Part shown: piece by piece, positions 37,407-54,943 of the stretch
How positions within the stretch are numbered: the stretch's first letter is position 1
Layout of the letters: each line of letters opens with the position of its first letter
Assembly (NCBI GenBank): GCA_963830815.1
Contig: CAWHNN010000022.1
Coordinates: forward strand, 25,753 to 89,752
Reading direction: 5' to 3'
Length of the DNA stretch: 64,000 nucleotides
DNA from: an uncultured Acidobacteriota bacterium
GTDB taxonomy: Bacteria; Acidobacteriota; Vicinamibacteria; Vicinamibacterales; 2-12-FULL-66-21
Made by a program: the position numbers and the translations under genes
Notes under the pieces: generated by a model
The model's database searches: none
The model's input: the letters and a program-made list of their open reading frames with translations, nothing else
What the model was told of the DNA's origin: nothing

Positions 37407-39381
37407 TCATCCTTCGAGGGCCCTCCTGCCAGCTGCCAGAGCTTTCACGATGGCGTCGACGTCGAACACGCACCCGCCCCACGTGCCCCCGCTGGCGTCC
37501 TGCAGCGCCGCCCACAGCCGTGTGTCGTCGGGAAGCGCCGGATCGGGCGCGAGGTCGGATCTGGCGGCCGACGGCTGGCGAGCAGCGCGCTCCCAGCCTC
37601 GACGCCGGCGAGCACGCCGTTTTCGCCGACCAGGTCGACCGAGCCTTCGAGCTTGACCCGATCGACCACGATCTGGACGAGGTCGCCGTCACGGAGCTTT
37701 CCGATCGGACCGCCCGCCAGCGCCTCCGGCGAGACGTGGCCGATGCAGGCGCCAGTCGAAACGCCGCTGAAGCGCGCGTCGGTCAGGATGGCGACGTGCT
37801 TGCCGAACGGGCAGATAGCGCAGCGCCGATGTGAGCTGATAGGTCTCTTCCATCCCCGCGCCCATCGGGCCGCGGCAGATGAGCACGAGGACGTCACCGG
37901 CCTGGATGCGCCCTTCCTTGATCGCCGCCATTGCCGCTGGCTCGGTGGTGAACACCTGCGCCGGTCCGGTGAATCGATAGACGCCATCAGGCGACGAGCA
38001 CCGACGGATCAATCGCCGTGCTCTTGATGACCGCGCCCTCGGGAGCCAGGTTGCCGATGGGGAAGCAGACCGTGGACGTCAGGCCGCGCGCCGCCGCGAC
38101 ATCCGGCGCCATGATCACGTCGTCGGCATTCGACGCCGTCTCGCGCTGAGAGCTCGGCGCGAAGCGCGGCGGCGGCGATCGGACGACTCCCACTCGTCGA
38201 GCTGCTCGCCAAGCGTGACGCCGCTTGCCGTCAGCGCTCCGGTCTCGAGCAGTCCCGCGCGGCGCAGGTGGAGCATGACTTCGGGAACGCCGCCGGCCAG
38301 GAACACCTGGATCGTCGGATGGTGCCGCGGTCCGTTCGGCAGCGCGTCGACTATGCGCGGCACGCGGCGGTTGATGTCGGTCCAGTCGCGTGCGGTCGGC
38401 CGGCGCAGACCCGCGGCGTGCGCGATCGCCGGGCAGGTGCAGGATCAGGTTCGTCGAGCCGCCAAACGCCGCGTGCGTCACCATCGCGTTGTGCATCGCG
38501 GCGTCGGTCAGGATGTCTTTCATCCTGATGCCGCGTCTGCTCGAGCGCCATCAGCGCGCGGGCGGACCGTCGCGCCATGTCCAGCCAGATGGGATGCCCG
38601 GACGGGCGCGAGCGCAGAGTGGCCCAGCGACATGCCGAGCGCTTCGCCGATCACCTGCGACGTCGCCGCCGTGCCGAGGAACTGGCAGCCGCCGCCGGGT
38701 GAGGCGCAGGCGCGGCACCCGAGCTCGGATGCTTCCTCGAGCGAGAGCTCGCCGTGCACGAAGCGCACGCCAATCGTCTGCACGCGTCCGGCGTCGTCGC
38801 CTTCGACGGGCAGGAGCGTCACGCCTCCCGGAACGAGCACGCAGGGAAGATCGTGGCTCCCGGCGAGCGCCATCATCATCGCCGGCAGGCCCTTGTCGCA
38901 CGTCGCGACGCCGAGGACGCCGCTACGCGTCGGGAGCGACCGAATCAGTCGTCGGAAGACCGTCGCCGCATCGTTGCGGTAGGCAAGGCTGTCGAACATG
39001 GCCGGCGTGCCCTGCGATCGGCCATCGCAGGGATCGGTGCAGGACGCGGCGAACGGAACGGCGCCGCGCGCTCTTGAACTCGCGCGCTGCAGCCTCCATC
39101 AGCAGGCCGACTTCCCAGTGCCCGGTGTGGTATCCGAGGGCGATCGGCGTGCCGTCGGGCGCGCGGATGCCGCCGTGCGTCGACAGGATCAGGAACTCCT
39201 TGCCGCCGATCGCGGCCGGCTCCCAGCCCATCCCGGCGTTCTGCGTCCAGCCGAAGACGTCACCCGACGGACGCGAGCGCAGCATCTCTGCCGTCAGGGG
39301 CAACGCCCCTGCCGGGCCGGCAACGTGCGTCGCGATCTCGTAGAGCGAGGGATCGGTGGTATCGAACTGTTTGAAACTCAC
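37407..39381 (-). CDS. IlvD/Edd family sugar-acid dehydratase (xylonate/arabinonate dehydratase-like); at least five frame interruptions
   Basis: N-terminus [20 protein letters not shown]...[20 protein letters not shown]. Further segments: [32 protein letters not shown], and the C-terminus [31 protein letters not shown] ending at the TGA at 37409..37407. Confidence 0.8.
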
Positions 39382-39591
39382 GATGGCTCAACTGACAGGA
39401 ACGAGGACATCCCGACGAGGGTAGCAGACAGGCTGCGTCTTTTCGTGGTACGCTTTCGCGCGGCGACCTTGTTCGAGTCGCAAACAATATCAATCGGGTC
39501 GAGCAGCATGCAAGTTGTTCAGGCTCCGCGTGCGTGTTCACGCCCTGACCGCCGATGCCGTGCGCGCCTGGCTCTGACACAAGGAAGGTTC

Positions 39592-40629
39592 ATGCGACCG
39601 GAGCAGTGGGACACATTCAAGCGGGCGGCGCGTCTGGAAAAGCTCGACAAGATCCCGATGGCCCTCATCGTCGACAGTCCATGGATTCCCGGCTACCTCG
39701 GGATCAAGCACATGGACTACTACCTCGATCCCGAACTGTGGTTCCAGTCGAACCTCAAGATCATGCGGGAATACCCGGACGTGATCATGGTGCCGTCGTG
39801 GTGGATGGAATACGGCATGGCCGCCGAGCCGTCGGTCCTCGGCGCCAAGATCAAATTCTGGCAGGACAACACGCCGAGCGAGTATCACACGCTCTATCGT
39901 CTCGAGGACATCGACCAGTTCCCGGAGTACGAGGTCGAAGCCGACGCGTTCGCGGCGATGACACTGCACCGGATCGGGATGCACAAGCAGCGCATCCTCG
40001 ATGAAGGCTACATCCTGCCGATGGTGACCTCCCGCGGCCCGCTGTGCACGGCGGGCTTCGTGCGCAGCACCACGAACCTGATGATCGAGCTGGTGGAGAA
40101 TCCTGACGGCTGCCACAAGCTGATCGACCTGTGCACGCGCGTCATCATCGACTGGCTCAAGGCCCAGCACAAGGTGATGGGCGATACCGTCGAAGGCATC
40201 TTCATCCTCGACGACATCGTCGGCTTCATCAACGAGGAGCACTACAAGGAGTTCGCCCACCCGTATCTCAAGCGCATCTGCGATGCCTTTCCCGACGACT
40301 GGGTGAAGGTCTACCACAACGATGCCGAAGTCGACGCCTGCCTCGACCATCTGCCGGACGCCGGCTTCAACGTCCTCAACTGGGGCAAGCAGAAGGACAT
40401 CCGCGAGGTGAAGGCGCGCGTCGGCAAGCGCATGTGCCTGATGGGGAACGTCAATCCTCTCGAAATCGCGGTTCGCGGCACGCCCGGCGGAAGTGCGCGC
40501 CGCGACGCTCGACGTGCTGGAGGGTTCGGGCGGCGAGGGGATCATCCTTTCGGTCGGCGGCGGCGTGAGCCCGGGCATGCCCGGCGAGAACGTGCGCGCG
40601 ATGCTCGAAGCGCTCGAGACCTTCAATAG
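39592..40629 (+). CDS. uroporphyrinogen decarboxylase (URO-D) superfamily protein, MtaA/CmuA/O-demethylase methyltransferase-like rather than HemE; one or two frame interruptions near the 3' end
   Basis: About 300 aa are uninterrupted: MRPEQWDTFKRAARLEKLDKIPMALIVDSPWIPGYLG...ILDDIVGFINEEHYKEFAHPYLKRI...MGNVNPLEI, then GIILSVGGGVSPGMPGENVRAMLEAL in the next frame. It lacks the HemE N-terminal PVWxMRQAGRY motif. Confidence 0.7.
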   Translation: MRPEQWDTFKRAARLEKLDKIPMALIVDSPWIPGYLGIKHMDYYLDPELWFQSNLKIMREYPDVIMVPSWWMEYGMAAEPSVLGAKIKFWQDNTPSEYHTLYRLEDIDQFPEYEVEADAFAAMTLHRIGMHKQRILDEGYILPMVTSRGPLCTAGFVRSTTNLMIELVENPDGCHKLIDLCTRVIIDWLKAQHKVMGDTVEGIFILDDIVGFINEEHYKEFAHPYLKRICDAFPDDWVKVYHNDAEVDACLDHLPDAGFNVLNWGKQKDIREVKARVGKRMCLMGNVNPLEIAVRGTPGGSARRDARRAGGFGRRGDHPFGRRRREPGHARRERARDARSARDLQ

Positions 40630-40636
40630 CCGCTCG

Positions 40637-41925
40637 ATGATCCGCGCGTATCCGAGGTCTCCGCTGGTGGATGATCAGCCTGCTGATGCTGGGCGCGATC
40701 ATCAACTACCTCACGCGCAGCACGCTGGCGGTCGCGGCGCCGACCGATCATGGGCGATCTCGGGATCACGACGCGCCAGTATTCCTGGATTGTCGGTGCC
40801 TTCCAGGGCGCCATCATGCTGCAGCCGATCTGCGGCTACGTCATGGACGTCATCGGCCTCAAGTTCGGCTTCGCATTCTTTGCCCTCTCGTGGTCGGTCA
40901 TCAGCATGGCCCATGGCCTGGCCGGCAGCTGGACGGCGCTCTTCTGGCTGCGCGGGCTCCTCGGGCTCGCTGAGGGTTCGGCCAATCCCGCCGGGATGAA
41001 GGCCACATCCGAATGGTTCCCGGCACAGGAGCGGGGCCTCGCGGGAGGCGTCTTCAATATCGGCGCATCTTTCGGCTCGATGCTGGCGCCGCCGCTCGTG
41101 GCATGGGCGATCATCGCTCACAGCTGGCAGGCGGCGTTCGTGCTGACGGGTGCGCTCGGCCTCGTGTGGGTGGTGTTGTGGCTCTGGCTCTATCATCCGC
41201 CGGCGACGCATCCCGCGCTTTCGGAGACGGAACGGCAGCACATCCTGTCGGGGCAGGAGCAGCACCTCAAGAGTGATGGCCGCGCCCATCGATCGGCAGG
41301 ATTCTCACGCAACGCAACTTCTGGGGGATCGCCCTGCCACGATTCCTGGCCGATCCGACCTGGGGCACGCTGACGTTCTGGCTGCCGCTGTATCTCACGA
41401 CCGTGCGGCACTTCGACCTCAAACAGATTGCGCTCTTCGCGTGGCTGCCGTTCCTGGCGGCCGATCTCGGGTGCCTGTGCGGCGGGACCATCAGCCTGGC
41501 GCTCCAGAAGCGCTTCGGCATGAGCCTCATCAACGCCCGCCGCAGCGCGTTCACGGTCGGGGCATGTCTGATGGTGGGCGTGGCGTTTGTCGGGTTCGTC
41601 GACAGTCCCTACGTGGCGATCGCGCTCCTCAGCCTGGCCGGCTTCGCGCACCAGACGCTGTCGGTCACCGTCATCACGATGTCGTCGGATCTTTTCAAGC
41701 GCAACGAGGTCGCCACCGTCGCCGGCATGGCTGGTACCTGCGGCAACGCTGGGGTCCTGATCTTCTCGCTCCTCATCGGGTCGCTCGTCGACCAGCATCG
41801 GGTACTCGCCGTTCTTCGTCGGCCTGGCGGCGCTCGATCTGCTGGGCGCCGTCCTTCTGTGGACGCTCGTGCGCGAGCCTCGCCCGTCGGGACCGGCCAG
41901 CAGTCCGGCGGCGGCTGTCGCCTGA
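40637..41925 (+). CDS. exuT: MFS transporter, hexuronate (ExuT-like, ACS family); at least three frame interruptions
   Basis: [109 protein letters not shown] and [18 protein letters not shown]. Confidence 0.8.
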
Positions 41926-41929
41926 TCCC

Positions 41930-43603
41930 ATGGCCTCGCCACGCCGCGTCATCCGCAATCCGATTCTCCGCGGGCTTCAATCCCGATCCGTCCATCGTCA
42001 GGGTCGGCGACGACTACTACATCGCGACTTCGACGTTCGAGTGGTTCCCCGGCGTCCAGATTCACCACTCGCGGGATCTCGTCCACTGGCGTCTCCTGAC
42101 GCGACCGCTGACGCGCGCCAGCCAGCTGAACATGCTCGGCGATCCGGACTCGTGCGGCGTCTGGGCGCCGTGCCTGACATACGCCGATGGCCTCTTCCAT
42201 CTGATCTACACCGACGTCAAGCGCTACGGCCGCACGTCACAAGCCGGCGCCGCCGGCGCGTCGCTCCGCGATTTCCACAACTACCTCGTCACGAGCGCTC
42301 GTATCGACGGGGACTGGTCCGATCCTGTCTACTTGAACAGCAGCGGCTTCGACCCGTCGCTTTTTCACGACGACGATGGGCGCAAGTATCTCGCTGAACA
42401 TGTTGTGGGACCACCGCCCGGGTCAGAATCGCTTCGCCGGCATCGTGCTCCAGGAGTACTCGGCCTCCGAGCGGCGGCTGGTCGGTGACCGCAGAGTGAT
42501 TTTCGAAGGCACCTCGATCGGCTTCACCGAGGCGCCGCACGTCTACAAGCGCAACGGTTACTACTACCTGATCACCGCGGAGGGGGGAACGGGCTGGGGG
42601 CATGCCGTGACGATGGCGCGCTCGCGCAGTCTTCTCGGACCGTATGAGCTGCACCCCGACACCTACATCCTGACGCGCACGCCACCGGCCGGACGTCGAG
42701 CTCCAGCGGGCGGGGCATGCGGACCTGGTCGAGACGCAAAGCGGAGAAACATTCATGGTTTACCTCTGTGGCCGGCCACTTCGTAATCGCGGCCGGTGCG
42801 TGCTTGGTCGCGAGACAGCCATCCAGCGGATGGCGTGGTCCGCCGACGACTGGCTGCGCACTGAGGACGGGCAGGGGATTCCCGTCAGCGAGGTGACGGC
42901 GCCCGCGCTCCCGCCACACCCGTTTCCGAGCGATGCACCTGCGCGAAGACTTCGATGGGCCGCGACTGCCGACGGCCTTTCAATGGCTGCGCTCGCCATT
43001 TCCGGACGAGCTCTTCAGCCTGGCCGCCCGTCCCGGCCACCTTCGACTGTACGGGCGAGAAACCATCGGCAGTCAGTTTCGCCAGGCTCTCGTCGCACGT
43101 CGTCAACAGGCGTTCTGCTACAGCGCCGCGACGGCTGTCGAGGTAGAGCCGCAGCACTTCCAGCAGATGGCGGGTCTCGTCTGTTACTACAACAGCAGCA
43201 AGTTCCACTACCTCCACATCTCTCACGACCCGGCTGTCGGCAAACACGTGCGCGTCATGAGCTGCCTGCCTGACCAGGTTCAGTCCGACGCTTTCACGGC
43301 GCCGATCGCGATTCCTTCGGACCGTCGCGTGCACCTGAGAGTCGAAGTAGATTACGAACGCCTCCGCTTCGCCTATCGGGTCGAAGGCAGCGCCTGGCAG
43401 TGGCTGCCGCAGCAGTTCGACACGAGTATCCTCTCCGACGAAGCCACGGCCCCGGGACTGCCGAACTTTACCGGAGCGTTCGTGGGGATGGCCTGTCAGG
43501 ACATGGCGGGAACCGGGCATGCCCGCCGATTTCGACTACTTCGAATATCAGGAACGCGACTACCGGCAAGATCCCGCTCCGATTTCCTTATCGCTGCGAG
43601 TAG
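41930..43603 (+). CDS. glycoside hydrolase family 43 beta-xylosidase/alpha-L-arabinofuranosidase (XynB-like); at least four frame interruptions; 3' end uncertain
   Basis: [92 protein letters not shown], and a C-terminal beta-sandwich domain ([15 protein letters not shown]...[12 protein letters not shown]). Confidence 0.85.
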
Positions 43604-43627: not shown

Positions 43628-45765
43628 ATGGAGTTTTCGCGCAGAGATTTCGTCTCGACGGGACTGGCCGGAGCGGCAGGCATGCTTGCATCGAAGGCGA
43701 CGGCCGTTCATCTGAGCGCAGCCCCCCGCAGTTGGCCGACGAAGACGGCTACAAACTGTGGCTGCGGTTCGCGCCGCCGGGTGACGCTGCGACGCAGTAT
43801 CGCCAGGCCATTCGACAGATCGTCGTCGCGGGCACGTCGCCAACCTCCCGCATCATCAGGGACGAACTGACGGCGGCGACGACAGCGATGTTCGGCAGTG
43901 CTGTGCCCGTAACCGAGGCGGCGCAATTGCCAGCCGTCATCGTCGGGACGCCAAAAACGTCGTCAGTGATTCGCGATCTGAAGTGGGATGCTGAGCTGAC
44001 GAAGCTCGGTGGGGAAGGGTATCGCATCAGAACCGTTCGCCTGGCCAATCAGCCGACGGTGGTCGTTGCGTCCGAGGGCGACATCGGCGCCCTCTATGGC
44101 ACGTATCACTTCCTGCGGTTACTGCAGATCGGCAGTCCCATCGATAGGCTGGACGTCACGGAGCGGCCGAAGGTTCAGCTCCGGATGCTGAACCACTGGG
44201 ACAACATGGACGGCACGATCGAGCGCGGCTACGCCGGGCCGATCGCTCTGGCAGTGGAGCGAGTTACCCGGCACCCTCAGCCCGCGCTACGTCGACTATG
44301 CGCGGGCGAACGCGTCGATCGGCATCAACTGCACGGTCGTCAACAGCGTCAACGCCAACGCCATCATCCTGACGCCGGAGTACCTGCCGAAGGTGGCGGC
44401 CCTGGCGGACCTGTGGCGGCCGTATGGGCTGCGCGTCTATCTGTCTGCAAACTTCGCGGCGCCGATGAGGATCGGCGGCCTGAAGACGGCAGATCCGCTC
44501 GACCCAGGCGTCATCGCGTGGTGGAAGGCCAAGGCCGGCGAGATCTACAAGCTGATTCCTGATTTCGGCGGATTTCTCGTCAAGGCAAATTCTGAAGGCC
44601 AGCCCGGTCCCAAGGACTACGGCCGCAATCACGCCGAAGGCGCGAATTGTCTCGCCGACGCCGTCGCCGCAAACGGCGGCAACGTCATCTGGCGGGCGTT
44701 CATCTACGACGAAGACGTCGATCCCGACCGCGCCAAGCGTGCCTACATCGAGTTCACGAAGCTCGACGGCCAGTTCAAGCCGAACGTCCTCGTCCAGGTC
44801 AAGAACGGCGCCATCGACTTCATGCCACGCGAGCCGTTCCATCCGCTCTTCGGCGCGCTGAACAAGACGCCGGTCGTTGCCGAGATCCAGGCCACCCAGG
44901 AATACCTGGGCCAGGCCAAACACCTCGTCTATCTCGGGACGATGTGGGAAGAGTTTCTCGAGGCGGACACTTACGCGAAGGGCAAGGGATCAACAGTCGG
45001 GAAGGTGCTCGAGGGCAACGTGCATCCCTCAGCGAGTCACGGGAATCGTGTCCGTGCTCAACCCCGGCCTCGACCGCAACTGGTGCGGGCATCACTTCTC
45101 TCAGTCCAACTGGTACGCGAGCGGGCGGCTGGCATGGAACCCCGAGCTCTCGGCGCAGCAGGTTGCTGACGAGTGGACCCGGATGACGTTCAGCAACGAC
45201 GCCAAGCACCGTCGAGACGATCCGGACGATGATGATGGGCTCGCGCGAGGCGTTCGTGAACTACACGATGCCGCTCGGCCTGCATCACCTCATCGGCGGC
45301 AACCACTACGCGCCGATGCCCGACAACGCCAAGGCGCCGCGCGCCGACTGGACGGCCACCTACTACCATCAGGCGTCAGCCGAAGGCGTCGGCTTCGACC
45401 GCACGATGCGCGGCAACAAAGCCGTCGGCCAGTACTTTCCACCTGTGCGCGACATGTTCGACAGCCTCGACACCTGTCCCGAGATGTTCCTGCTGTGGTT
45501 TCACCGCTGCTCGTGGGATTACAAGCTCAAGTCCGGCAAGACGCTGTGGGCAGGATTGTGCGAGAAGTACCCGGAAGGGGCCCGGCAGGCGGCGGCCATG
45601 CAGTCAACGTGGCAGTCGCTGGCGGGGAAGATCGATCCGCAACGCCATCGCGAAGTCGCCGAGCGCCTGGCGATCCAGGTCGCGGACGCCAACAAATGGA
45701 GCGGAGAGATCCTGCGCTACTTCCAGACCTTCAGCAAACTGCCGATCAGCAATGCTGAAGTCTGA
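43628..45765 (+). CDS. aguA: glycoside hydrolase family 67 alpha-glucuronidase with a twin-arginine signal; at least four frame interruptions
   Basis: Tat motif [21 protein letters not shown]. Further segments: [74 protein letters not shown], and an intact C-terminal ORF of 178 aa. Confidence 0.85.
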
Positions 45766-45832
45766 ATGCTGAATGCTGAATGAATTTGAGGTCAGCCTTA
45801 CATTCAGCATTCAACATTCAGCATTCAGAATT
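45751..45832. repeat. imperfect palindrome built from GAATGCT / AGCATTC heptamers (copy 2 of 2), at a convergent gene junction
   Basis: AATGCTGAAGTCTGAATGCTGAATGCTGAATGAAT - 16-nt loop - ATTCAGCATTCAACATTCAGCATTCAGAATT. The stop codons of both convergent genes (45763..45765 on the plus strand, 45827..45825 on the minus strand) lie within the arms. Confidence 0.8.
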
Positions 45833-46678
45833 GCCCGAACGGTTCTCCCGCCGGAATCAGCTCGACCGGAACTTCGGTGATGAACGTCTTCAGCCAGTCG
45901 GCACAGACTTTCATCCCTGGCTCCTCTGATACTGCGTGGCCCATGACGATGACGCCTTTCGGGCGGCCGGCCGCGATGGCGTCATGCGCGTAGAAAAGTC
46001 CCTCCCACTCGCGCTGCTCGCCCGTGAACACGAGATCGGCGTCGGCCATCACTCGCATCATCGCCGGTAATTGTCCGTAGCCCGGCATGTAGCCGACCTT
46101 GGTGATCTTCGTCGCGGGATCGCCCATGAGGCGGAGCGCCTTGATCCCCATCTTCTCGCGCGTGAGCTTCGCTGCCGCCTCCAGCGTGATCTCCGGAATG
46201 GTGACGATGCGGCCCTGCGGCTGCACGTATTTCTCCCACCCCATCGCCTGATAGAAACCCTGCGCCATCGGCTCCGGGCCGGCGCATGTGCCAGTGGTCG
46301 TGGAAGCGCCAGACCACGAGGTCGTGCTTCTTGATCAGTTCGGCCTTGCGCTGATAGATCGGGTCGTTCTCGATCTCGGTGGTGCTGTCGGTGTGACCGT
46401 AGAACGTCGGTTCGTGGCTGATGATGAAGTTGCGGCCCGCGGCGGCCGCGCGCTCGAGGACCGACATCGTCGCCATCACCGTCGTGGCGATGCCACGCAC
46501 GGTCGTGTCCGGGTTGCCGGCCTTGAACGTGTCGACCGTCTCGGTTCGCCACGTCACGCCAAGGTTCGACTGGATGCGCTCAACGACCCGTTTCGGTGTC
46601 AGTGCAGATTGTGTTGCCTCGCCACTGTTCCCAAAAGCACCGCGCCGGCGCCCTGGCCACGAACTTCCGCCTCGTCAT
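45825..46678 (-). CDS. NIF3-family (dinuclear metal centre) protein with an apparent twin-arginine signal; at least three frame interruptions
   Basis: MTRRKFVA, then GAGAVLLGTVA in an adjacent frame. The body reads VDTFKAGNPDTTVRGIATTVMATMSVLERAAAAGRNFIISHEPTFY, and the C-terminal ORF of 147 aa reads ...VFTGEQREWEGLFYAHDA...VIVMGHAVSEEPGM. Confidence 0.65.
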
Positions 46679-48221
46679 GTCGCCCATGGCTGACTATCGT
46701 AGCGCCGTAGCGCGCGGCGCGAGAAGTAGCGCTCGGCGAACGTGATGAACGTCGGCCACGTCGGCTCCGGCGTGTGGCCGGCGGTGTGCTGGCGGAAGCC
46801 GAGATCGCCCTCGAGGATTGCGGTGTCGATCGGCGGAAACTCAGTCGTGCCGAGGTCTTTCTTGCCGAGCAGCTTGTAGACGGGACCGGCGCCGACAGCG
46901 GCAAGGAAGCTGCCCTTGGCGTCGACCCATGCGTCGTTGACGGCGACGGTGCCATCCGGCTGCACAGGGCCAGGGCCGGCGCCGGCGCTCAGGAACACCG
47001 GGCGCGGCGCGCACAACGCGATGAGCTCGTGCGAATCGACCGGCATCGTGTCCCAGCGCGCGGTGTACTTCAGATAGTTGCCCGCCATCCAGTGATAGAA
47101 CGAATTGGCGACGTTCTCGATCGTCTCGCCGTACTTGCGCCGATTGAGCTTGGCGCCACCCTGGCCGGAAGAGCTGATGTATCCGATCGCGAAGCGCTCG
47201 TCGAAAGCCATGGCGACGAGCGCGGCCTTGCCGGAGCGTGAATGGCCCTGGACGCCGACTCGCTTCGCGTCCACTGCCTTGTCGGTTTCGAAGTAGTCGA
47301 GCAGGCGGCTGGCGCCCCAGCCCCAGGCGGACAGCGCGCCCCAGTCGTCCAGTGCGCGCGGCTGGCCCTTGTTGACGAGGCCGATGATGCCTGACGTCAG
47401 CCCGGCGCCGCAGTCTCGCCTGCACGCTCCCGGTATTCAAGTTCGCGTAGCCCCAGCCCTTTGCGAGCAGCTGCTGCTGCCACGTCGGCCCCGTTGCCGC
47501 CGGCGGGCCTCCTGGCCCACGACCACCAGCAGGCGCCGCGCCTCGTCCACCTGCCGCGCCGAAACCTCCCGGCGGCGCGCACGGATTCGGCGGCGCTTCG
47601 ATGCCGGGAGCCGGCGGAAAGCCGCCGCCGCCAAAAATCACGATCACCGGGACGGGACCCGACGCGTTCGCGGGTGTATTCAGCGTCGCCTGGATCTCCA
47701 CCTTGATCGCCGGATACGCGGAATTGTCTACCGTGCCCAGCAGCTGCTTCGTGACGATCGGCGTATCGCCGTTCGTGCCCTTCGTCGTCGAGACGACCGC
47801 CCACGTGACCTTCGGCGTCTTCGGCGTGCGGCCGTAGATCTCGCGCTGGAAGTCTTCCAGGAGCTCCGCGCGCCGCTTGCTCCGCCACACCGCGGCCGTC
47901 GTCACCTTCTGGCCGCTCTTGAGCGTGAGCGGGTCGGGGAGGTTCGGATACGGATTGGCCGTCGCTTCGTTGTAGGTGTCGGGGCTCGAGCTCACTGCGC
48001 CAGGCGGGATCGCGGAGATCTTGAGCTGGTTCATGATCCGCTGCCGCTCGGCCTGATTCGCGAGCTGCACGGGCGTCGGCGGCGCTGGCGCCGCTGGAGG
48101 ATGCCGGCGCTGGCGTCTGTGCGGGCGCCTGCCCGGTTCCTTGCGCGACTGGGGAAACGCCAGAGGCCACGAGCACGAGGCCGAGAGACCACAGGATTCC
48201 GCGAGTCAAGCTTACTGACAT
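46675..48221 (-). CDS. carbohydrate esterase family 15 (glucuronoyl esterase)-like protein, secreted; at least three frame interruptions
   Basis: Signal peptide MSVSLTRGILWSLGLVLVASG. N-terminal domain ...PNLPDPLTLKSGQKVTTAAVWRSKRRAELLEDFQREIYG. Catalytic block VGVQGHSRSGKAALVAMAFDERF (GxSRxGK nucleophile motif) with a HTAGH-containing C-terminus. Confidence 0.75.
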
Positions 48222-48282
48222 CGATGCCTCGTCTTTCTATGCCGAAGGGGTGTTGCTGGCTCGCGCTACGATCCGCTGCGGG

Positions 48283-49165
48283 TTACGGCTCGCGCACCGC
48301 GCGGAATCCGATCATCCTGTGGCCTTGAAACGATGGCCACGCGGCCGATCGTCGGTAGGCGCGCAGGTCGAACGTCTCGACGAAGAACGATCCGCCGCGA
48401 ACCACGCGGTAGGCGCCCGTCGCCGGACCACGGGGATTCTTGCGCGGGGAGCTGGCGTAGTAGTCGCGGCTGTACCAATCCTGGCACCACTCCATGACGT
48501 TGCCCGCCATGTCGAGCGCGCCATACGGCGACGCATTACTATGCGTCTCGAGATCTCCTCGCTTGCTGCCGTCGAAGAATCCGGCGGGGCGCCCGGTGTC
48601 ATAGGTCTGTGCACCCACGAAGTTCGCGAACGACCGATCGATCGTGTTCCCCCACGGATAGCGGCGCTGATCGGTTCCGCGCGCGGCCTTTTCCCACTCG
48701 GCCTCCGTCGGCAGCCGGTACTTCTTGCCGGTTTTCGCGCTCAGCCAATTGCAGTAGGCGACCGCCGCGTCCCAGTTGACGCCGAGAAGGGGATAGCCGT
48801 CGCTGTCGGGAGTGCCTGCCGCCATGATTGTTCGCCTGCGTCCAGTACGGCACCTGATCGCGTGGCACGACACGCCCCTCGGGCCAGAAGCGCGGATCGT
48901 CGTAGCCGGGATCGTCGCGGAATTTCTTCCACTCGCCGTTGGTCATCTCGAGACGCGCGACGTAGAACGCGTCGAGCTCGACGGTGTGCACCGGCCGCTC
49001 ACGCGCATCGCCGTCGCCGAAGGAATCGCCCATCTGAAAGGCGCCGGGCGGCACGTAGAGATAGTCGCCGTGCCCATCGTTCACGACTTTGGCGGGCTGG
49101 GCGCTGGCCGCCATGACGACGAAGACAGTCGCAAATGCCGCGGCGGGGAAGGCGATTCGTTCCAT
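48283..49165 (-). CDS. formylglycine-generating-enzyme (SUMF1/FGE-sulfatase) domain protein, secreted; one frame interruption near 48830
   Basis: [23 protein letters not shown] (signal peptide), [20 protein letters not shown], then [13 protein letters not shown]...[15 protein letters not shown]...[11 protein letters not shown]...RVVRGGSF. Confidence 0.75.
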
Positions 49166-49169
49166 GTGG

Positions 49170-50039
49170 CTACTTGCTCGACAAGAAGCCGCCGAGTTTG
49201 AGGAATCGCTCGAGATCGGACATCCAGCCGCCAAACTCCGGGCTGCCGAAGCCGCTGCCGAAGCCGTGACGGCCTTTCTGGTAGACGTGTATTTCGGCCG
49301 TCGCTCCCGCCCGCGTCAGATCCATGAAGAGTTGCGCGTTGCCGAGTGACGGCCCCTGATCGCCTGCGGCTGAAACGAGGAACGTCGGAGGAAAACTCTT
49401 CAGGGACTCGCCCGGCGTTGCTCTGCCAGCGCCGTAGACGAGCGCGAGATAGTCTGGTCTCGAGCTCACGCGCTCGAGTGCGTCCGCCGCCTCGGAATCA
49501 CTGGCCCGCGCGTTTGCAACGACCGTGCGCCCCATGTTCGAGCCCGCCGAGAAACCGATGTAGCCAATCTTCGCGGGATCGAGCTTCCACGCGGCGGCAT
49601 TGCCACGTACGACCTGGATGGCACGCATGCCGTCGAGAGTCCGCGCGTCGTCGCCGTAGCGCGGCGACAGGCGATAGGTCAGCACGAACGCCGTGACACC
49701 CCAGTCGTTGTAGCGCTCGGCAATCTCGAGACCCTCGGCGCCGTACATCAGCATGATGTTCGCGCCACCGGGCGCAATGACGACGGAGCCACCGTTCCGC
49801 TTTCCCTCCGGCGGCAGGAAGGCGGTCAGGAAAGGCGCGTCGAGCGGACCGTCTCCCTTTGCGAGCGGAACCTTGCCCGCGTCCCACAACGGAACGTTGC
49901 GGTACTGCGTCAGCGCTCCGTTCTCGGACGGCGCAGCGGCACCGCCGCTGGAACTCGCCGCAAGGGACGTTGGGATCGTGTGAAGAACAACGAGGAACGA
50001 CGCCACACAGATAACAGGCTTGATCATCTGTCCTTGCAC
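49170..50039 (-). CDS. secreted alpha/beta hydrolase (esterase/lipase fold; possible acetyl-xylan or feruloyl esterase)
   Basis: Intact 289-aa ORF with a signal peptide and the nucleophile elbow GFSAGS in IGYIGFSAGSNMG. It lies in the same minus-strand run as CE15. Confidence 0.65.
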   Translation of the reverse strand: MQGQMIKPVICVASFLVVLHTIPTSLAASSSGGAAAPSENGALTQYRNVPLWDAGKVPLAKGDGPLDAPFLTAFLPPEGKRNGGSVVIAPGGANIMLMYGAEGLEIAERYNDWGVTAFVLTYRLSPRYGDDARTLDGMRAIQVVRGNAAAWKLDPAKIGYIGFSAGSNMGRTVVANARASDSEAADALERVSSRPDYLALVYGAGRATPGESLKSFPPTFLVSAAGDQGPSLGNAQLFMDLTRAGATAEIHVYQKGRHGFGSGFGSPEFGGWMSDLERFLKLGGFLSSK

Positions 50040-50094
50040 CCAGGATGGCTCGGAACGTTTCCCGCAGACGCGCGCCGGCGATTTGTTCGCGACG

Positions 50095-50122
50095 TGGACA
50101 AAAGCGAAAAAGATAATAGAAT
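50095..50122 (+). promoter_or_regulatory. candidate sigma-70 promoter TGGACA-N16-TAGAAT for the corrinoid operon
   Basis: TGGACA (50095..50100), 16-nt spacer, TAGAAT (50117..50122), in an AT-rich gap. GGAGA at 50156..50160 precedes the ATG at 50170. Confidence 0.4.
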
Positions 50123-50169
50123 GAAGGGCTTACGATTGCAACTATCGCTCGCTGTGGAGACGACACGGG

Positions 50170-50813
50170 ATGCCTGACTACGCGTTGATGAATCAGCACC
50201 TCTACGAGGGCAAGGCCAAGGAGGTCGAGCAGATGACGCGCGACGCCCTGGCTGAAGGGCGCCCGGTGCAGGAGGTCCTGACCGATGGACTCATTGCCGG
50301 CATGAGTGTCGTCGGCGAGGACTTCAAGCACAACGTGCTCTACGTTCCCGAGGTCCTGATTGCGGCGCGCGCGATGAAGGCCGGCATGGCCGTGCTCAAG
50401 CCGCTCCTGAGCGCACGCGAAGGGCGAATCGTCTCGCACCGGCGTGCTCCTGATGGGTACCGTTCGCGGCGACCTGCACGACATCGGCAAGAACCTCGTG
50501 CTGCATGATGGCCGAAGGCGCCGGGTTCGAAGTGCACGACATCGGCGTCGACCAGAGCGTCGAGAAGTTCATGGCCGCGGCGGACAAGTGCCAGCCGACG
50601 ATCATCGGCATGAGCGCGCTCTTGACGACGACGATGACGTACATGAAGACGGTCATCGACGGCTTCGAGAGCGCCGGCCGCGGCAGCATCAAGATGGCTG
50701 TCGGGGGCGCGCCCATCAGCCAGATGTTCGCCGATGAGATCGGCGCCGACGGCTACGGTCAGAATGCGTCCGCCGCGGTGGACCTGTTCCTGCGCCTGTC
50801 GCGAGAAGCGTGA
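50170..50813 (+). CDS. corrinoid (cobalamin)-binding protein, MtaC/MtbC/MetH-B12-domain type; two frame interruptions
   Basis: B12-cap helix bundle (LYEGKAKEVEQMTRDALAEG...VPEVLIAARAMKAG), then GTVRGDLHDIGKNLV (DxHxxG), then MSALLTTTM and VGGAP (SxL...GG). The three parts are in three frames. Confidence 0.85.
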
Positions 50814-50817
50814 CCGC

Positions 50818-51078
50818 ATGCTGACGACCTACAAGATCCTCTGCTGGCAGGAGATTCCCTCGCAGATCAAGGCCGAAGACGAAAGGGAAGAGGTCACTGT
50901 CAACCTCTCGCCGCGCTTCATGGAGCGCATCGATCAACTCGCGGCGAAACGCGGGCTGCAGGGATCGGACGACTATCTCGCGCAGTGGCAGTGGAGCGAC
51001 GAGCAGCAGCGCGAGGGCGCGGCGCCTGACGTCGCGGAAGCACTGCGGCTGGAACTCGAAGCGAAGGCCGACTGGTAA
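50818..51078 (+). CDS. small conserved protein of the kind commonly found next to RACo/corrinoid methyltransferase genes (function unknown)
   Basis: 86 aa from the ATG at 50818: MLTTYKILCWQEIPSQIKAEDEREEVTVNL... The family assignment is from memory only and has not been searched. Confidence 0.55.
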   Translation: MLTTYKILCWQEIPSQIKAEDEREEVTVNLSPRFMERIDQLAAKRGLQGSDDYLAQWQWSDEQQREGAAPDVAEALRLELEAKADW

Positions 51079-51088
51079 AACCCGCAGC

Positions 51089-52735
51089 ATGCTCTCGGTC
51101 ACGATCAACGGAACACACGTCGAGATCCCCCCGGGGACGTCCATGTTCGACGCCGCCAGTCAGGCCGGTGTCCGTGTGCCGACGTCGTGCGTCGCCCAGG
51201 GCAAATGCAAGGAGTGCATCGTCGAGGTGACACGCGGCGCAGAGCTTCTGAACGCGCGGACGGAGTGCGAGCAACACCTCACGGGAGCCTTCAGGCTGTC
51301 CTGTCAATGCCGGCCGACGACGGAGTCGGGCGCCATCGACTGTCACACGATGCGCCGGGGCCACATGCGCATCGAACGCCACGCGCTCAATCTACCCGCA
51401 AGCCAGACGCGTCTCCCGCTCGATCCGCCCGTTATCCGCGACGGCTCGCGCATCGTCGATCGTGTCACTGGCACTGTCCTGGCGGAGTCTGACGGCCCGA
51501 TTCATGGGCTCGCCATGGACATTGGAACGACGACGGTCGTCATACGGCTGCTCAATCTCGAGACGGGCGAGCTCGTTGCCGATGCCTCGTTGGAGAATCC
51601 GCAGCGCTTTGGCGGCTCCGACGTGATGTCCCGCATTCACTACGACACTGAGCACCGCGGCAAGCTGCTACGGCGAACACTCGCGGGCTACCTCACGCAC
51701 GCGATCGAGGAGTTTCCCGTCGATCCAGCGACCATCTACGAGGCCGTCGTCGTCGGCAACGCCACGATGCGCGATCTGTTCTTCCGGCAGAGCGTGTATT
51801 CAATCGGCCAGAATCCGTATCGATCCATCACCGAGATCGAGATGGCAGCAGGAACGCGCGCGACGACGAGCCTGACGGAAACTGGTCGCCGCTGCCTCCT
51901 GCCGATTCATCCCCGCGCGCGCGTCTATGGACTGCCGGTGATCAGCGGCCACGTCGGCGCCGATGCTGCCGCGTGCATGCTCGCGGTCGGGCTCGCTGAC
52001 GAAGAGCGGCTCGTCGCCATCATGGACATCGGAACAAACACCGAGCTCATCCTCGGAAACAGGCACCGCATCGTTGCTGCGTCCTGCCCGGCGGGTCCCG
52101 CGTTCGAGGGCGGAGCGATCGCCTGTGGCATGCCCGGCCTCGAAGGCGCGATTGAGGATGTCCGGCTGAACGATCGCGGCGGCTTCGATTGCGGCGTGAT
52201 CGGCGGTGGCCGCGCAGAAGGCATCTGCGGCTCGGGCCTCGTCGATCTCATGAGCGAGCTGCTTCGCGCCGGGCACATGAACGCGATGGGGCGATTCGAC
52301 GACGGCGTGTCGCGCATGACGATCGATGCCGCGAACGATATCTATTTCCTCGAGAGCGACGTCAACGAGCTGGCGCAGGCCAAGGGCGCCAACGTCGCCG
52401 GCCTGCACGTCGTCTTCAGCAGCTTTGGTATCTCCTTTGATGCCGTCGATGTGTTCTATCTCGCGGGCGGCTTCGGACGGCACTTGAAGAAGGAAGCATC
52501 GCGGCGTATCGGCCTGATCCCCAACCTGCCCGACGGCAAGATCGTGCAGGTGGGCAACGCGGCCATCGAAGGCGCGTGTATCGCGCTTCTGTCGCTGGAG
52601 CAGCGGGCGGTCATCGAATCGCTCGTGCGCAAAGTCGAACACTGCCGCCTCGAAACGCATCCCGACTTCTTCGACTTCTTCGTTGACGGGTGTCAGTTCA
52701 AGCTCGTGGAGTCGAGCGATTCGGTACCGCGATGA
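51089..52735 (+). CDS. reductive activator of corrinoid proteins (RACo-type: 2Fe-2S ferredoxin domain plus ASKHA ATPase domain)
   Basis: Intact 548-aa ORF. N-terminal plant-type ferredoxin cysteines (SCVAQGKCKECIVEV...LSCQC), then ASKHA motifs (GLAMDIGTTTVV, IMDIGTNTELIL, CPAGPAFEGG, ICGSGLVDL). Confidence 0.85.
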   Translation: MLSVTINGTHVEIPPGTSMFDAASQAGVRVPTSCVAQGKCKECIVEVTRGAELLNARTECEQHLTGAFRLSCQCRPTTESGAIDCHTMRRGHMRIERHALNLPASQTRLPLDPPVIRDGSRIVDRVTGTVLAESDGPIHGLAMDIGTTTVVIRLLNLETGELVADASLENPQRFGGSDVMSRIHYDTEHRGKLLRRTLAGYLTHAIEEFPVDPATIYEAVVVGNATMRDLFFRQSVYSIGQNPYRSITEIEMAAGTRATTSLTETGRRCLLPIHPRARVYGLPVISGHVGADAAACMLAVGLADEERLVAIMDIGTNTELILGNRHRIVAASCPAGPAFEGGAIACGMPGLEGAIEDVRLNDRGGFDCGVIGGGRAEGICGSGLVDLMSELLRAGHMNAMGRFDDGVSRMTIDAANDIYFLESDVNELAQAKGANVAGLHVVFSSFGISFDAVDVFYLAGGFGRHLKKEASRRIGLIPNLPDGKIVQVGNAAIEGACIALLSLEQRAVIESLVRKVEHCRLETHPDFFDFFVDGCQFKLVESSDSVPR

Positions 52736-54000
52736 TCGAGATCATCGACACGTCCCCGGATATCGACGTCGCTGCTGTCGAATACAAGCGGCTGCTGGGA
52801 TACCCGCGCGACTCGGTCGTCAGCGATCGGGCGCAGGAATTGATGGATTTGGCGCGCGGGTGGTACCGAACGCACGGACGTCCGTGGGTACAGGCACGGC
52901 AGGCCGACGGCCTGGAACTGTCTGGCAATGCCGTGACGATCGATGGCGTGCCTTTCTCCAGTCCCCGGCTGTCGCAAACGCTCAGGAACGCGACCGCCGA
53001 CAGCGCCATCGTCGTCGCCGTGAGCGCCGGACCCGAGCTCGAGGCCGAGGCGCAGCAGCTGTGGCGCGACGGTAAGCCCGACGAGTACTTCTTCCTCGAA
53101 GTGTATGGCTCGGCGGTCGTCGAGCATCTGGTGACGATGACCGGGGCGCGGCTGTGCGCGTGGGCGGAGTCGAGGCACATGGCCGTGCTGCCGCACTACA
53201 GTCCTGGCTACCCGGAGTGGTCGATTGAAGAGCAGCCGCGGCTCCTGGATCTGATCAATCGGCTGCAGCCGGCAATGCCGGCACCTGTCGAAGTGATGGA
53301 TTCGGGGATGCTGCGCCCGAAGAAGTCGCTGCTCGCAGTGTTCGGGATCACGAGACACGTCGACCGCGTGCAGCGGCTGACCGCTCTCACCCCGTGCGAG
53401 AACTGTTCGTACTTGCCGTGTCAGTATCGGCGCGCGCCGTACCGGCGGGCACCGCTGCCAGCGAACCCCGAGTTGTCGGCGCTCTCACGGGAAACAAGCG
53501 TTGAAGCGGCGAGGCCGAGGCCGGCGCTGCACCGGCTACAACTCTCGACCATGGCCACTACACCGTGAACCTCAAGGCCCTGCAGCGGTGGAGCGAGGAG
53601 CGTCTGTCGCTTTCCCGGCGCGCCGACGGCGGCGTCGACGCCACGTTCCGCTACGAAGGGACGACGTGCACGAACATGGGCAGGGCACTGAAGTTCGACT
53701 ACCGGGTGACGCTTGGTCCGCCGCAGGACGGCTATCCGATCAGGGAGCAGCGGTGCGCGCCTGCCGAAGGCGACACCGGGTACACCTACATGTGCCGTTA
53801 CCTGAGCAACCGTGAGCAACTGCTCGTGGCGATCGATCGACGAGCAGCCGTTGAACGGCAAGCCGCTGAACGACGTGCTCGGGTGGACGCGGGCGGCGAG
53901 CGGCGCCGGCTGCTACTGCGAGCCGGAGAGCCGGCAGCACAAGTGGGGCCTGGTGCTCGAAACCATTCATTTCGCGCTGGCGCGGGAAGGCGGAGACTAG
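52732..54000 (+). CDS. methionine synthase activation (AdoMet-binding, Met_synt_B12-like) domain protein with a Cys-rich C-terminal extension; probably two frame interruptions (about 53540 and about 53830)
   Basis: ATGA overlap with the RACo stop. EYFFLEVYGSAVVEHL...LPHYSPGYPEWSIEEQPRLLDLI resembles the MetH reactivation domain. The extension reads HYTVNLKALQRW...TCTNMGRAL...YMCRYL, then GAGCYCEPESRQHKWGLVLETIHFAL. Confidence 0.65.
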
Positions 54001-54943
54001 GTGGAGGCGCAGAAACAACGGTTGCAGGACAAAGTCAGGGAGCGGCCTCTGCTCGGCGACGGCGCCATGGGCACGCAGTTGATGATTGCCGGCCTCGAGC
54101 AGGGCAATTGCGGCGAGGCATGGAACCTGACTCACCCCGAGCGCGTGCTGGCCATCCAGCGGCGCTACGCCGAAGCCGGCTCGGACTGCATCATCACGAA
54201 CACGTTCGGCGGGTCGCGCATCATGCTCAATCGGCATGGTCATGCCGGCGACGTCGCCGCGGTCAATCGTGCCGGTGTCGAGATCGCGCGCGAGGCGTTC
54301 GACGGCCGCGAAGGGTGGGTGCTCGGCGACATCGGTCCCTTCGGCGGACTGATGGAGCCATACGGCGACTTCACCGAGGACCAGGTACGACGGGCGTTCG
54401 CCGAGCAGGCCGAGGCGCTCGTTGGCGCCGGGGCCGACGCGCTCATCATCGAGACCCAGACATCGCTCGAGGAATTGCAGCTCGCCATCGAAGCGGCGCG
54501 GAATGCCGGCGCACCATGCGTCATCGGCTCGATGGCCTACGACGTCACGCTCGACGGTTCGACGTTCCGCACGATGATGGGCATCGATCCGGAACGCGCG
54601 GCCGACGTTCATGGGCGAACACGGCGCCGACATCGTGGCGCTCAACTGCGGCACGGGCATGGATATGGAGCGCGCGCGGCAGGCCGTGCGGCGCTATAAG
54701 GACACCACCGGCTTGCCGGTGATGGCGCAGCCAAACGCGGGTCAGCCCAAGCTCGTGGCGATGAAAGTCGTGTACGACGAAACACCAGAGCAGATGGTGT
54801 GCGGCGTCGTCCCTCTCCTCGAAGCCGGAGTCGACATCGTCGGCGCGTGTTGCGGGAGCACTCCCGAACATATCCGGGCGTTTCGCAACGCCATGGACCA
54901 CTACCTGGCCGGGCGGGCGAGCCGGCAGGAACTTTCACGATAG
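54001..54943 (+). CDS. homocysteine S-methyltransferase domain protein (MetH N-terminal module-like); one frame interruption near 54600
   Basis: GTG immediately after the upstream TAG. LLGDGAMGTQL, DCIITNTFGGS, ADALIIETQTSLEE, then ADIVALNCG...VGACCGSTPEHI (zinc-binding Cys motifs). Confidence 0.85.

Follow-up and report, generated by a model that had tools for sequence, protein, structure and literature searches.

How might a bacterium that degrades glucuronoxylan dispose of the methyl ether carried by 4-O-methyl-glucuronic acid, the sugar acid that decorates the main hemicellulose of hardwoods and grasses, when that ether should block the uronate pathway? The question arises from a 64,000-nucleotide stretch of DNA from an uncultured Acidobacteriota bacterium (GenBank assembly GCA_963830815.1, contig CAWHNN010000022.1, positions 25,753 to 89,752; hereafter the window), in which a gene for a protein of the URO-D superfamily stands at the head of a set of glucuronoxylan genes, and genes for a corrinoid protein, a RACo-type reductive activase, and a homocysteine S-methyltransferase (Hcy-MT) stand at the other end. 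A first-pass annotation proposed that these two groups constitute a corrinoid-dependent demethylase for 4-O-methyl-glucuronate, with the URO-D-like protein as donor-side methyltransferase (MT1) and Hcy-MT as acceptor-side methyltransferase (MT2). The genes it listed are all present, as Pfam and NCBIfam scans found URO-D-like, MFS, GH43, GH67, CE15, corrinoid protein, RACo, and Hcy-MT genes, and the methyl-glucuronate demethylase reading is supported by comparison of gene content among genomes. We found no established bacterial route for removal of the ether from 4-O-methyl-glucuronate in the literature, and a search with most subscription journals outside its reach returned no description of the cassette or of corrinoid-dependent demethylation of an O-methyl sugar; the cassette appears to be the best current candidate for the 4-O-methyl removal step.

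The two groups of genes, about 9.5 kb apart in the window, are a single operon elsewhere. At least 585 species-representative genomes carrying the cassette were found, from which 80 Acidobacteriaceae loci were kept, and a metagenome scan added 80 further loci (34-73% G+C), 76 after dereplication. Seven genes are contiguous and in fixed order in 71 of the 80 species-level Acidobacteriaceae genomes, namely those for the URO-D-like protein, the corrinoid protein, a Virulence_fact protein, RACo, a MetH-activation-like protein, Hcy-MT, and a 116-aa unknown; the remaining nine loci are interrupted by contig ends or assembly errors. The corrinoid gene directly follows URO-D in 75 of 75 Acidobacteriaceae and 58 of 61 diverse metagenomic loci (133/136 together). 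A Korobacteraceae locus also has the seven genes contiguous, with a MetH-activation-like unknown of 429 aa and no xylan gene near, and the same gene set is found in Phycisphaerales, in KSB1 (rearranged), and in many metagenomic loci. Only one URO-D-family gene per cassette is seen in the annotated loci. That the URO-D-like gene and the corrinoid module belong together, as had been proposed from their proximity, is strongly supported by this contiguity, which marks them as one conserved cassette.

The split arrangement is seen only in the window lineage (three species, represented by the window and two related loci, L001 and L102), where a block of MFS, GH43, GH67, CE15, and esterase genes lies between the URO-D and corrinoid genes. 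The separation had been attributed to a minus-strand esterase operon; the minus-strand esterase genes are there, and a plus-strand MFS-GH43-GH67 operon lies between the halves too. Since the split recurs in L001 and L102, which share about 22 kb of colinear sequence with the window at just 80-83% DNA identity, it is neither an assembly artifact nor very recent. In these three genomes, about 80% identical in DNA, URO-D is operonic with the ExuT-type MFS, GH43, and GH67 genes; the MFS gene starts some 10 nt past the URO-D C-terminus, and the putative MT1 gene thus heads the MFS-GH43-GH67 operon. L001 is without the FGE-sulfatase-domain and esterase genes, so that the inserted block varies among close relatives.

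Comparison of the cassette forms suggests that the acceptor module varies, directing the methyl group to homocysteine, to tetrahydrofolate, or to both. The seven-gene form with Hcy-MT is that of the Acidobacteriaceae; in Phycisphaerales and about 10% of Acidobacteriaceae it is joined by a divergent trio of MTHFR, Pterin_bind, and amidohydrolase genes; and in KSB1 the order is RACo, unknown, small unknown, URO-D, corrinoid protein, Virulence_fact, MTHFR, Pterin_bind, and amidohydrolase, without Hcy-MT. Those parts of the window that were scanned (36185-63254) and 50 of 56 long Acidobacteriaceae loci yielded no Pterin_bind gene. Homocysteine, the acceptor first proposed, thus holds for the seven-gene cassette as one of two alternatives, relatives apparently using tetrahydrofolate. 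Because the KSB1 loci have URO-D, corrinoid protein, Pterin_bind, and MTHFR and no Hcy-MT, we place the URO-D-like protein on the donor side; were it a folate or acceptor methyltransferase, the KSB1 operon would be without a donor enzyme. Two smaller forms were seen. URO-D is followed directly by Hcy-MT alone in L096 and L097, and this minimal pair (L095/L096 10001-11973, L097 10001-12009, L177 3821-5799), with no corrinoid protein or activase nearby, adjoins TonB-dependent receptor, GH3, and ROK genes in L096 and GH67 in L177. The locus L101 (10001-13185; Bryobacteraceae metagenome-assembled genome [MAG] GCA_052325345.1) holds URO-D-like and corrinoid genes followed by one for an MtaB-family methanol:corrinoid methyltransferase, with SHMT nearby, that is, the domain content of archaeal MtaABC in a bacterium. 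In a Phycisphaerales locus (L008 3053-8539) a cytochrome P450 gene adjoins the divergent amidohydrolase/Pterin_bind/MTHFR trio.

The URO-D-like protein is a member of its superfamily (PF01208, 102.8 bits against a cutoff of 23.9) and is not HemE. As the first-pass annotation held, the HemE signature is missing: the protein scores 62 bits against TIGR01464 (cutoff 303), and the N-terminal Arg-rich motif (RQAGR) is absent, WMMRQAGRYLPEY standing opposite ALIVDS-PWIPGY in an alignment to Pseudomonas aeruginosa HemE, with the arginines missing. HemE identity was rejected on these two grounds. Assignment to the MtaA/CmuA branch fails likewise, since scores fall below the cutoffs of the MtaA/CmuA (TIGR01463, 100.4 against 235.4 bits), MtaA (NF040654, 74.8 against 400), and MtbA (NF041608, 68 against 600) models. 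The MtaA structure 4ay7 was matched in the PDB search at E 2e-8 to 7e-8 only, and with the family profile the chloromethane MT1 CdmB (E 1.6e-11), HemE (4.6e-11), and MtaA (7e-8) are about equally remote. A TIM barrel is predicted by AlphaFold (pLDDT 74.6, pTM 0.83). The family consensus has invariant YHNDA and VGGG(T/V)SPG motifs, which may lie at the positions of the zinc ligands (His-x-Cys ... Cys) with which MtaA/MtbA-type enzymes activate the thiol acceptor. Further invariant loops read DSPWIPGYLG, WWMEYGMAAEP, FWQDNTPSEYH, and NWGKQ. The window protein is 84-98% identical to intact homologues and 97-98% identical within its lineage; there are thousands of relatives, with more than 80% identity in Acidobacteriota, Phycisphaerales, and KSB1 alike. 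All full-length family members from an exhaustive search fell into a single 50%-identity cluster, the next full-length relatives being at most 41% identical. The protein represents a tight, isolated, uncharacterized clade that belongs to no characterized methyltransferase family. Identity remains at or above about 74% among hosts from several phyla with loci of 34-73% G+C, which reflects either extreme constraint or a recent and wide horizontal spread of the cassette.

The remaining cassette proteins are those expected of a corrinoid methyl-transfer system, together with three that carry no functional annotation. The corrinoid protein has cap and Rossmann domains and a DxHxxG motif read as GDLHDIGKNLV; its matches to the NCBIfam MtgC, MtbC, and pyl_corrinoid models are all under cutoff. 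RACo consists of Fer2 (2Fe-2S ferredoxin), Raco_middle, and RACo_C_ter (ASKHA) domains, is identical in sequence to a protein in public collections, and is kept in the cassette at 76 of the 80 Acidobacteriaceae loci; the L002 homologue matches the AcsV and RamA models. The zinc-ligand cysteines of Hcy-MT (NCG and GACCG) can be read in the window sequence, and the L002 homologue matches Hcy-MT models, with a match to the MetH N-terminal region also obtained. The Virulence_fact protein, likewise present at 76 of 80 loci, is fused to the corrinoid protein in the Phycisphaerales locus L008. The 115-aa protein shares 62-72% identity with its counterparts in Korobacteraceae, Phycisphaerales, and KSB1, is present in 72 of the 80 loci, and gave no known-family match in sequence searches.

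The protein of about 420 aa had been read as a MetH-type reactivation protein. Sequence searches against Pfam, NCBIfam, and PDB do not detect it, and all of its more than 3,000 homologues (P0121-P0240 and L002 13651-14940 among them) carry the label 'hypothetical'; the reading was borne out at the level of predicted fold. With the AlphaFold model of the P0121 homologue (pLDDT 77.6), Foldseek matched the N-terminal half to the activation domain of TM0269 (1j6r; E 1.4e-9, TM 0.81) and to the MetH activation domains 8sse, 6bm5, and 1msk, with Thermus, Escherichia coli, and human MetH among the matches. The model confirms that the N-terminal domain is, by predicted fold, like the AdoMet-binding activation domain of MetH. 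An invariant PHYSPGYPEW motif lies in this half; the C-terminal half has an equally invariant CxxCxxxxC and many more conserved Cys and His residues, and gave no structural match in Foldseek. The protein almost always accompanies RACo and the protein of about 115 aa, and the conservation of this RACo-linked set suggests a new corrinoid repair module.

What connects the cassette to glucuronate is the company it keeps. With GH115, GH67, CE15, and UxuA-family genes as markers, density in the 76 dereplicated metagenomic loci, which are not phylogenetically independent, reaches 9.0 per 100 kb in the 2 kb next to a cassette gene and drops to 0.7 at 2-5 kb and 0.9 at 5-10 kb; 10 of the 80 metagenomic loci have GH115, GH67, or CE15 in only 432 kb of total flank. 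An unbiased Pfam census of the 120 open reading frames (ORFs) nearest the cassette in these 76 loci is headed by UxuA (5), GH115 (4), CE15 (4), and MFS (4), followed by aldose epimerase, GH43, GH10, GH3, and FGGY, and aromatic-ring catabolic families are absent from its top neighbor families. The 114 farther ORFs include GH115 and GH67 once each and, among the families listed, no UxuA and no CE15. In the KSB1 locus L099, from a different phylum than the window and with a different alpha-glucuronidase family, the cassette is embedded, all on one strand, in a GH115-based xylan locus (GH8, a xylose-isomerase-like gene, FGGY, GH115, two esterases of which one is CE4, two aldo-keto reductases, a further esterase, and GH88), and in a second KSB1 locus (L010) a canonical UxuA gene lies 4 bp past the amidohydrolase gene of the cassette. 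Among the 80 Acidobacteriaceae loci, GH67 and CE15 adjoin the cassette in one, and GH115 is directly upstream and co-directional in another (L028). What GH67, GH115, CE15, acid-sugar MFS, and UxuA have in common is (methyl)glucuronate. That the xylan genes adjoin the cassette by chance at first seemed likely, given GH67 and CE15 in 1 of 80 Acidobacteriaceae loci and the abundance of glycoside hydrolases in Acidobacteria, and was then contradicted by the metagenome set and the decay with distance. Co-occurrence with xylan and uronate genes, a check suggested in the first-pass annotation, is absent from the largest sampled clade, the Acidobacteriaceae; in diverse other lineages it is strong and distance-dependent, and extends to both alpha-glucuronidase families, CE15, and UxuA. 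The computational checks suggested there all either favored the hypothesis or left it unrefuted.

Several observations accompany this association. A CE15 gene with a type IX secretion tail lies between the corrinoid-protein and Virulence_fact genes in L126 (4098-6822), and the order in L114 (1-4030) is GH115, URO-D, corrinoid protein, CE15-like; both are within-cassette glucuronoxylan insertions independent of that in the window. In five diverse loci (L117 5137-6390, L125 1487-2566, L130 8665-9741, L152 8747-9808, L177 2429-3649) a divergent UxuA-family gene adjoins the URO-D-like gene (Pfam UxuA E 1e-48 to 1e-53); it is 25-28% identical to canonical UxuA in the four of the five that gave a tblastn match, and its product may act on the methylated or demethylated sugar acid. 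An IlvD/EDD dehydratase and a FAH-family gene, often with aldehyde dehydrogenase and SDR genes, recur beside the cassette in unrelated loci (window 36185-39387, L087 17677-20432, L120 6805-12789, L103 1685-6692, L010 195-6132; L010 has the FAH, aldehyde dehydrogenase, and SDR genes and gave no dehydratase match). By family content this set looks like a Weimberg-type or oxidative sugar-acid pathway, and the cassette may be linked to broader oxidative sugar-acid catabolism, a caveat on the assignment of methyl-glucuronate.

We infer the direction of transfer, the donor, and the chemistry from the observed gene content, the unity of the cassette, the predicted folds, and the association with glucuronate genes. 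In the scheme that we propose, the URO-D-like TIM-barrel protein would serve as MT1, methylating the corrinoid protein, in its Co(I) form, from a substrate, and the zinc-dependent Hcy-MT would serve as MT2, passing it to homocysteine to yield methionine; in relatives, a Pterin_bind methyltransferase and MTHFR would transfer it to tetrahydrofolate instead or additionally. Corrinoid protein in the Co(II) state would be rescued by RACo, probably with help from the two small proteins of the cassette and from its MetH-activation-like/Cys-rich protein. The likeliest donor would be the 4-O-methyl ether of 4-O-methyl-D-glucuronate freed by GH67 or GH115, the alternative being a 4-O-methylated downstream intermediate, e.g., 4-O-methyl-mannonate or 4-O-methyl-2-keto-3-deoxygluconate; an alkoxide leaving group would require some activation, unless the donor were such an intermediate. 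In the window lineage, a glucuronoxylan block was inserted exactly between the MT1 and corrinoid-protein genes. We regard it as very probable that the cassette works as one corrinoid methyl-transfer system, with homocysteine or tetrahydrofolate as the recipient. Methyl-glucuronate, or a 4-O-methylated derivative of it, as the donor is, on the genomic context, an evenly balanced call, and the combined reading, an MT1/corrinoid/MT2 system that demethylates methyl-glucuronate or a derivative, seems the best overall explanation of the gene content, probable by a slight balance.

A number of points weigh against this assignment. The URO-D-type MT1 enzymes known so far take their methyl group from aryl methyl ethers or methyl halides. 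Compared with phenolate or chloride, an alkoxide makes a far poorer leaving group, and we know of no precedent for cleavage of an aliphatic methyl ether by cob(I)alamin. The predicted URO-D-like fold matches HemE and MtaA structures alike (Foldseek TM 0.70-0.79) and does not discriminate between them, and the presence of MtaB beside URO-D and the corrinoid protein in L101 makes methanol-related or MT2-type readings conceivable. In addition to the shared ancestry of the loci in the enrichment counts, marker density in the Acidobacteriaceae (78 genomes) is at background, 0.3-0.7 per 100 kb, with highly variable flanks, and relatives 87-88% identical in protein have an unsplit cassette and no xylan genes nearby. 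In a syntenic seven-species Acidobacteriaceae subclade (L027, L029, L031, L033, L035, L075, L081), genes for a LacI-family regulator and for a GluP/FucP-like MFS lie directly upstream and co-directional, at about 7.3-9.8 kb of the long loci, and such a neutral-sugar transporter hints at a different or broader (neutral) O-methyl sugar. A rival explanation is a general split methionine synthase or methyl-scavenging cassette whose donor would be something else, whether methanol, a methoxy-aromatic from lignin, a methyl halide, a methylated sulfur compound, or another O-methyl sugar, and whose proximity to xylan genes would be due to shared plant-litter ecology or chance. CE15 is also active at the lignin-carbohydrate interface. 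The cassette is self-contained, without a xylan link in the variable Acidobacteriaceae contexts; L101 has its MtaB and the one subclade its LacI regulator and GluP-like MFS; CdmB is nominally the top PDB profile match, and the substrates of characterized URO-D-type MT1 enzymes are chloromethane or aryl methyl ethers (PMC13222342). We nevertheless consider this explanation rather unlikely, because nearest-neighbor enrichment is specific to glucuronate genes (UxuA-family, GH115, GH67, CE15, acid-sugar MFS) and falls away within 2 kb, no aromatic-ring catabolic family is among the top neighbors, and CE15/xylan genes have entered the cassette in two independent arrangements, those of the window lineage and L126. 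Methanol in particular would already be served by MtaB in L101, leaving URO-D redundant for this donor.

It is improbable, in our view, that the URO-D-like protein is instead an MT2 for another acceptor, in the manner of MtaA or MtoA, or a folate/pterin methyltransferase standing in for the missing folate domain of MetH, in what would be a complete but disaggregated MetH. Archaeal MtaA, MtbA, and MtoA are URO-D-family MT2 enzymes (PMC10418091; PMC13222342), L101 carries the archaeal MtaA/MtaC/MtaB domain content, and the window cassette has MetH-like Hcy, B12, and activation modules and no Pterin_bind; this explanation would leave KSB1-type loci with two acceptor or folate modules and no donor, and Pterin_bind and URO-D occur together in about 10% of Acidobacteriaceae loci and in Phycisphaerales. 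The family consensus may also speak against an MtaA-like MT2, with YHND and GGG where the His/Cys zinc ligands of MtaA would be expected. It is more improbable still, to the point where we give it very little weight, that the window copy is a decaying remnant in which the insertion broke the operon, the frameshifts mark pseudogenes, and the halves are functionally unlinked. The near-universal URO-D/corrinoid adjacency is indeed interrupted in the window, and frameshifts are present in the URO-D gene (one, near 40483), the corrinoid-protein gene (two), the gene for the protein of about 420 aa (two), and the Hcy-MT gene (one). Frameshifts also disrupt pepA and RNase J, however, which are housekeeping genes of the window; the close relative L001 comes from a related ENA assembly with equally fragmented gene calls; and in the colinear L102, where gene calls are mostly whole, the xylonate dehydratase, GH67, CE15, corrinoid-protein, and RACo genes are intact. 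The arrangement, moreover, is kept in all three genomes despite their DNA divergence, with the URO-D proteins nearly identical, and G+C at third codon positions (GC3) is coding-like along the whole region. Because housekeeping genes are also broken and the copies in relatives are intact, the pattern points to sequence noise rather than gene decay, and pseudogenization of the window copy was rejected; the window sequence probably derives from an error-prone long-read MAG. The window and L102 align with 410 indels, which, at only about 80-83% DNA identity, are uninformative for classifying the frameshifts as homopolymer errors. In the window (40600-40760) and three related assemblies (L102 10001-11404; P0001, P0002, P0032), the URO-D frame is without a stop at the usual site and continues out of frame over the beginning of the MFS gene for about 115 codons, so that the products are 467-469 aa long; the L001 product is an ordinary 349 aa. 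This run-on frame may reflect either indel errors or a true effect of the insertion junction.

The features of the region are collected in the table. Frames switch often within evident genes in the window (G+C about 66%), and GC3-selected stop-to-stop segments were scanned against Pfam and NCBIfam.

Table. Features of the window in and around the proposed demethylation locus (positions in window numbering).
Feature	Position	Strand	Basis
FAH-family gene (candidate XylX-like 2-keto-3-deoxy-pentonate dehydratase), fragmented	36185-37399	-	PF01557 on 36185-36718; colinear with intact 397-aa FAH of L102
IlvD/EDD-family D-xylonate dehydratase, YjhG/YagF type, frameshift-fragmented	37448-39387	-	PF00920, PF24877; TIGR03432 E 2.7e-45
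URO-D-superfamily gene, proposed MT1	39592-40645	+	PF01208 E 2.5e-29
MFS transporter, D-galactonate/ExuT (anion:cation symporter) type, frameshifted	40646-41950	+	PF07690; TIGR00893 best match for both halves
GH43 beta-xylosidase/arabinofuranosidase with GH43_C2, frameshifted	~41934-43600	+	PF04616, PF17851
GH67 alpha-glucuronidase, N, middle, and C domains, frameshifted	~43700-45765	+	PF03648, PF07488 (E 5.7e-119), PF07477
NIF3-like fragment ORF	45828-46334	-	PF01784 E 5.4e-10; TIGR00486 far under cutoff
CE15 glucuronoyl esterase, frameshifted	46678-48282	-	PF22244 E 1.1e-28; colinear with 530-aa CE15 of L102
FGE-sulfatase-domain protein	48286-49200	-	PF03781 E 4.6e-40; kept in L102 (17845-18726)
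Alpha/beta-hydrolase esterase (BD-FAE/Abhydrolase_3; acetyl-xylan or pectin acetylesterase-like)	49173-50129	-	PF07859, PF20434; weak NCBIfam PaeX and AxeA1 matches
Corrinoid (cobalamin-binding) protein	50170-50813	+	PF02607 (B12-binding_2) and PF02310 (B12-binding)
Small Virulence_fact protein	50818-51075	+	PF13769 E 5.2e-15
RACo/RamA-type ATP-dependent reductive activase, intact ORF	51089-52735	+	PF00111, PF17651, PF14574 (E 5.7e-67)
~420-aa protein, MetH-activation-like fold and Cys-rich domain	52732-54000	+	Predicted fold; sequence profiles without match
Homocysteine S-methyltransferase (MetH Hcy-domain/BHMT type), proposed MT2	54001-54943	+	PF02574 E 1.7e-38 and 3.1e-18
Conserved 115-aa protein, final cassette gene	54951-55298	+	No family match; conserved in relatives

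With GH67, GH43/GH43_C2, CE15, a BD-FAE-type esterase, and a D-galactonate/ExuT-type MFS, whose N-terminus reads as ExuT-like, the region has the gene content of a glucuronoxylan utilization locus. The intact L102 homologues of the xylonate dehydratase and GH67 are of 654 and 675 aa. About 0.9 kb (45780-46700, including the NIF3-like ORF) has no counterpart between GH67 and CE15 in the colinear L102, and the NIF3-like ORF, judged by this comparison, probably stands outside the system. The FGE-sulfatase-domain gene sits inside the xylan block, between CE15 and the esterase, with no evident role in xylan degradation. Housekeeping genes form the right flank (pepA at 55392-56908, amidase, ftsK, and RNase J at 61627-63254), and colinearity with L102 places aromatic amino-acid biosynthesis genes on the left. 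A promoter and terminator scan gave matches at chance level, and we take it as a weak hint only.

If the proposal is true, B12-dependent transfer to homocysteine or folate would close the gap that the methyl ether leaves in uronate catabolism; plant cell-wall decay would be tied to methionine, one-carbon metabolism, and B12 demand in abundant soil and peat bacteria, and aliphatic sugar ethers would join aryl ethers and methyl halides as substrates in corrinoid methyltransferase chemistry. We are tentative, a little short of even confidence, about the fullest form of the claim, in which this O-demethylase would be the first of the cobalamin-dependent kind to act on an aliphatic sugar methyl ether. 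It would take the 4-O-methyl group from methyl-glucuronate of xylan origin, or from a 4-O-methyl sugar acid further down the pathway, and keep it as methionine or methyl-tetrahydrofolate, with a portable cassette and a new repair module made up of RACo and a MetH-activation-like domain fused to a Cys-rich one. Whatever the donor, the cassette is a widespread, extremely conserved, and uncharacterized methyl-transfer system with three unannotated protein families; its MT1 clade and its accessory protein family are new, and its substrate class possibly so. The carrier lineages (Acidobacteriota, Planctomycetota, and KSB1, from soil and peat) are regarded as largely aerobic.

Among described systems, the nearest in MT1 superfamily are the anaerobe O-demethylases (OdmB, VdmB, MtvB, MtoB) and CdmBCA of Acetobacterium dehalogenans, which likewise combine a URO-D-superfamily MT1, a MtaC-like corrinoid protein, an MT2, and an ATP-dependent activase, and in which CdmB and MtvB need no canonical zinc motif (PMC13222342). 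They are remote from the cassette in sequence, CdmB, HemE, and MtaA being about equally distant; their donors are aryl methyl ethers or methyl halides, their hosts are strict anaerobes, and their MT2 is always a pterin methyltransferase, never a homocysteine methyltransferase. Type 1 mlp clusters (PMC10418091) need two or three Mlp paralogues, occur only in obligate anaerobes, mostly Firmicutes, are proposed to function in methyl-sulfur or methyl-selenide metabolism, and have no Hcy-MT and no MetH-activation-like protein; membership of the cassette in the mlp clusters of Kountz and Balskus was rejected, given its single URO-D gene, its other hosts, and the presence of Hcy-MT. The Hcy-binding, B12-cap plus B12-binding, and activation modules of MetH all have counterparts in the cassette, but there they are separate proteins, with no folate module in the window, a URO-D-like protein at the donor position, and RACo added. 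The activation-like domain differs from that of MetH in its extra Cys-rich domain, and has H where what we take to be the RxxxGY motif of MetH has R.

To our knowledge, P450s are the sole known sugar O-demethylases. The 6-O-methyl-D-galactose demethylase of marine Bacteroidetes polysaccharide loci is a cytochrome P450 (PMC6292453), and it resembles the cassette in being a dedicated O-methyl-sugar demethylase in a polysaccharide locus, where the methyl ether blocks downstream catabolism. It is oxidative and needs O2 and redox partners, releasing formaldehyde so that the methyl group is lost, whereas the cassette would conserve it. The closest functional precedent for the cassette architecture is MtgBCDE of Ruegeria pomeroyi and Phaeobacter inhibens, in which one corrinoid protein serves a specific MT1 and both pterin and homocysteine methyltransferases, with RamA (PMC12478193; PMC5764234). 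Separate MT1, corrinoid, and Hcy methyltransferase polypeptides, a RamA/RACo activase, and delivery of the methyl group to methionine or folate are common to both, and MtgBCDE works in aerobic bacteria. Its MT1 is a MttB-family enzyme acting on glycine betaine, whereas that of the cassette belongs to the URO-D superfamily; its accessory protein is DUF1638, in place of the MetH-activation-like/Cys-rich protein and two small proteins; and its genes are scattered, whereas those of the cassette form a tight, portable operon associated with glucuronoxylan and uronate genes.

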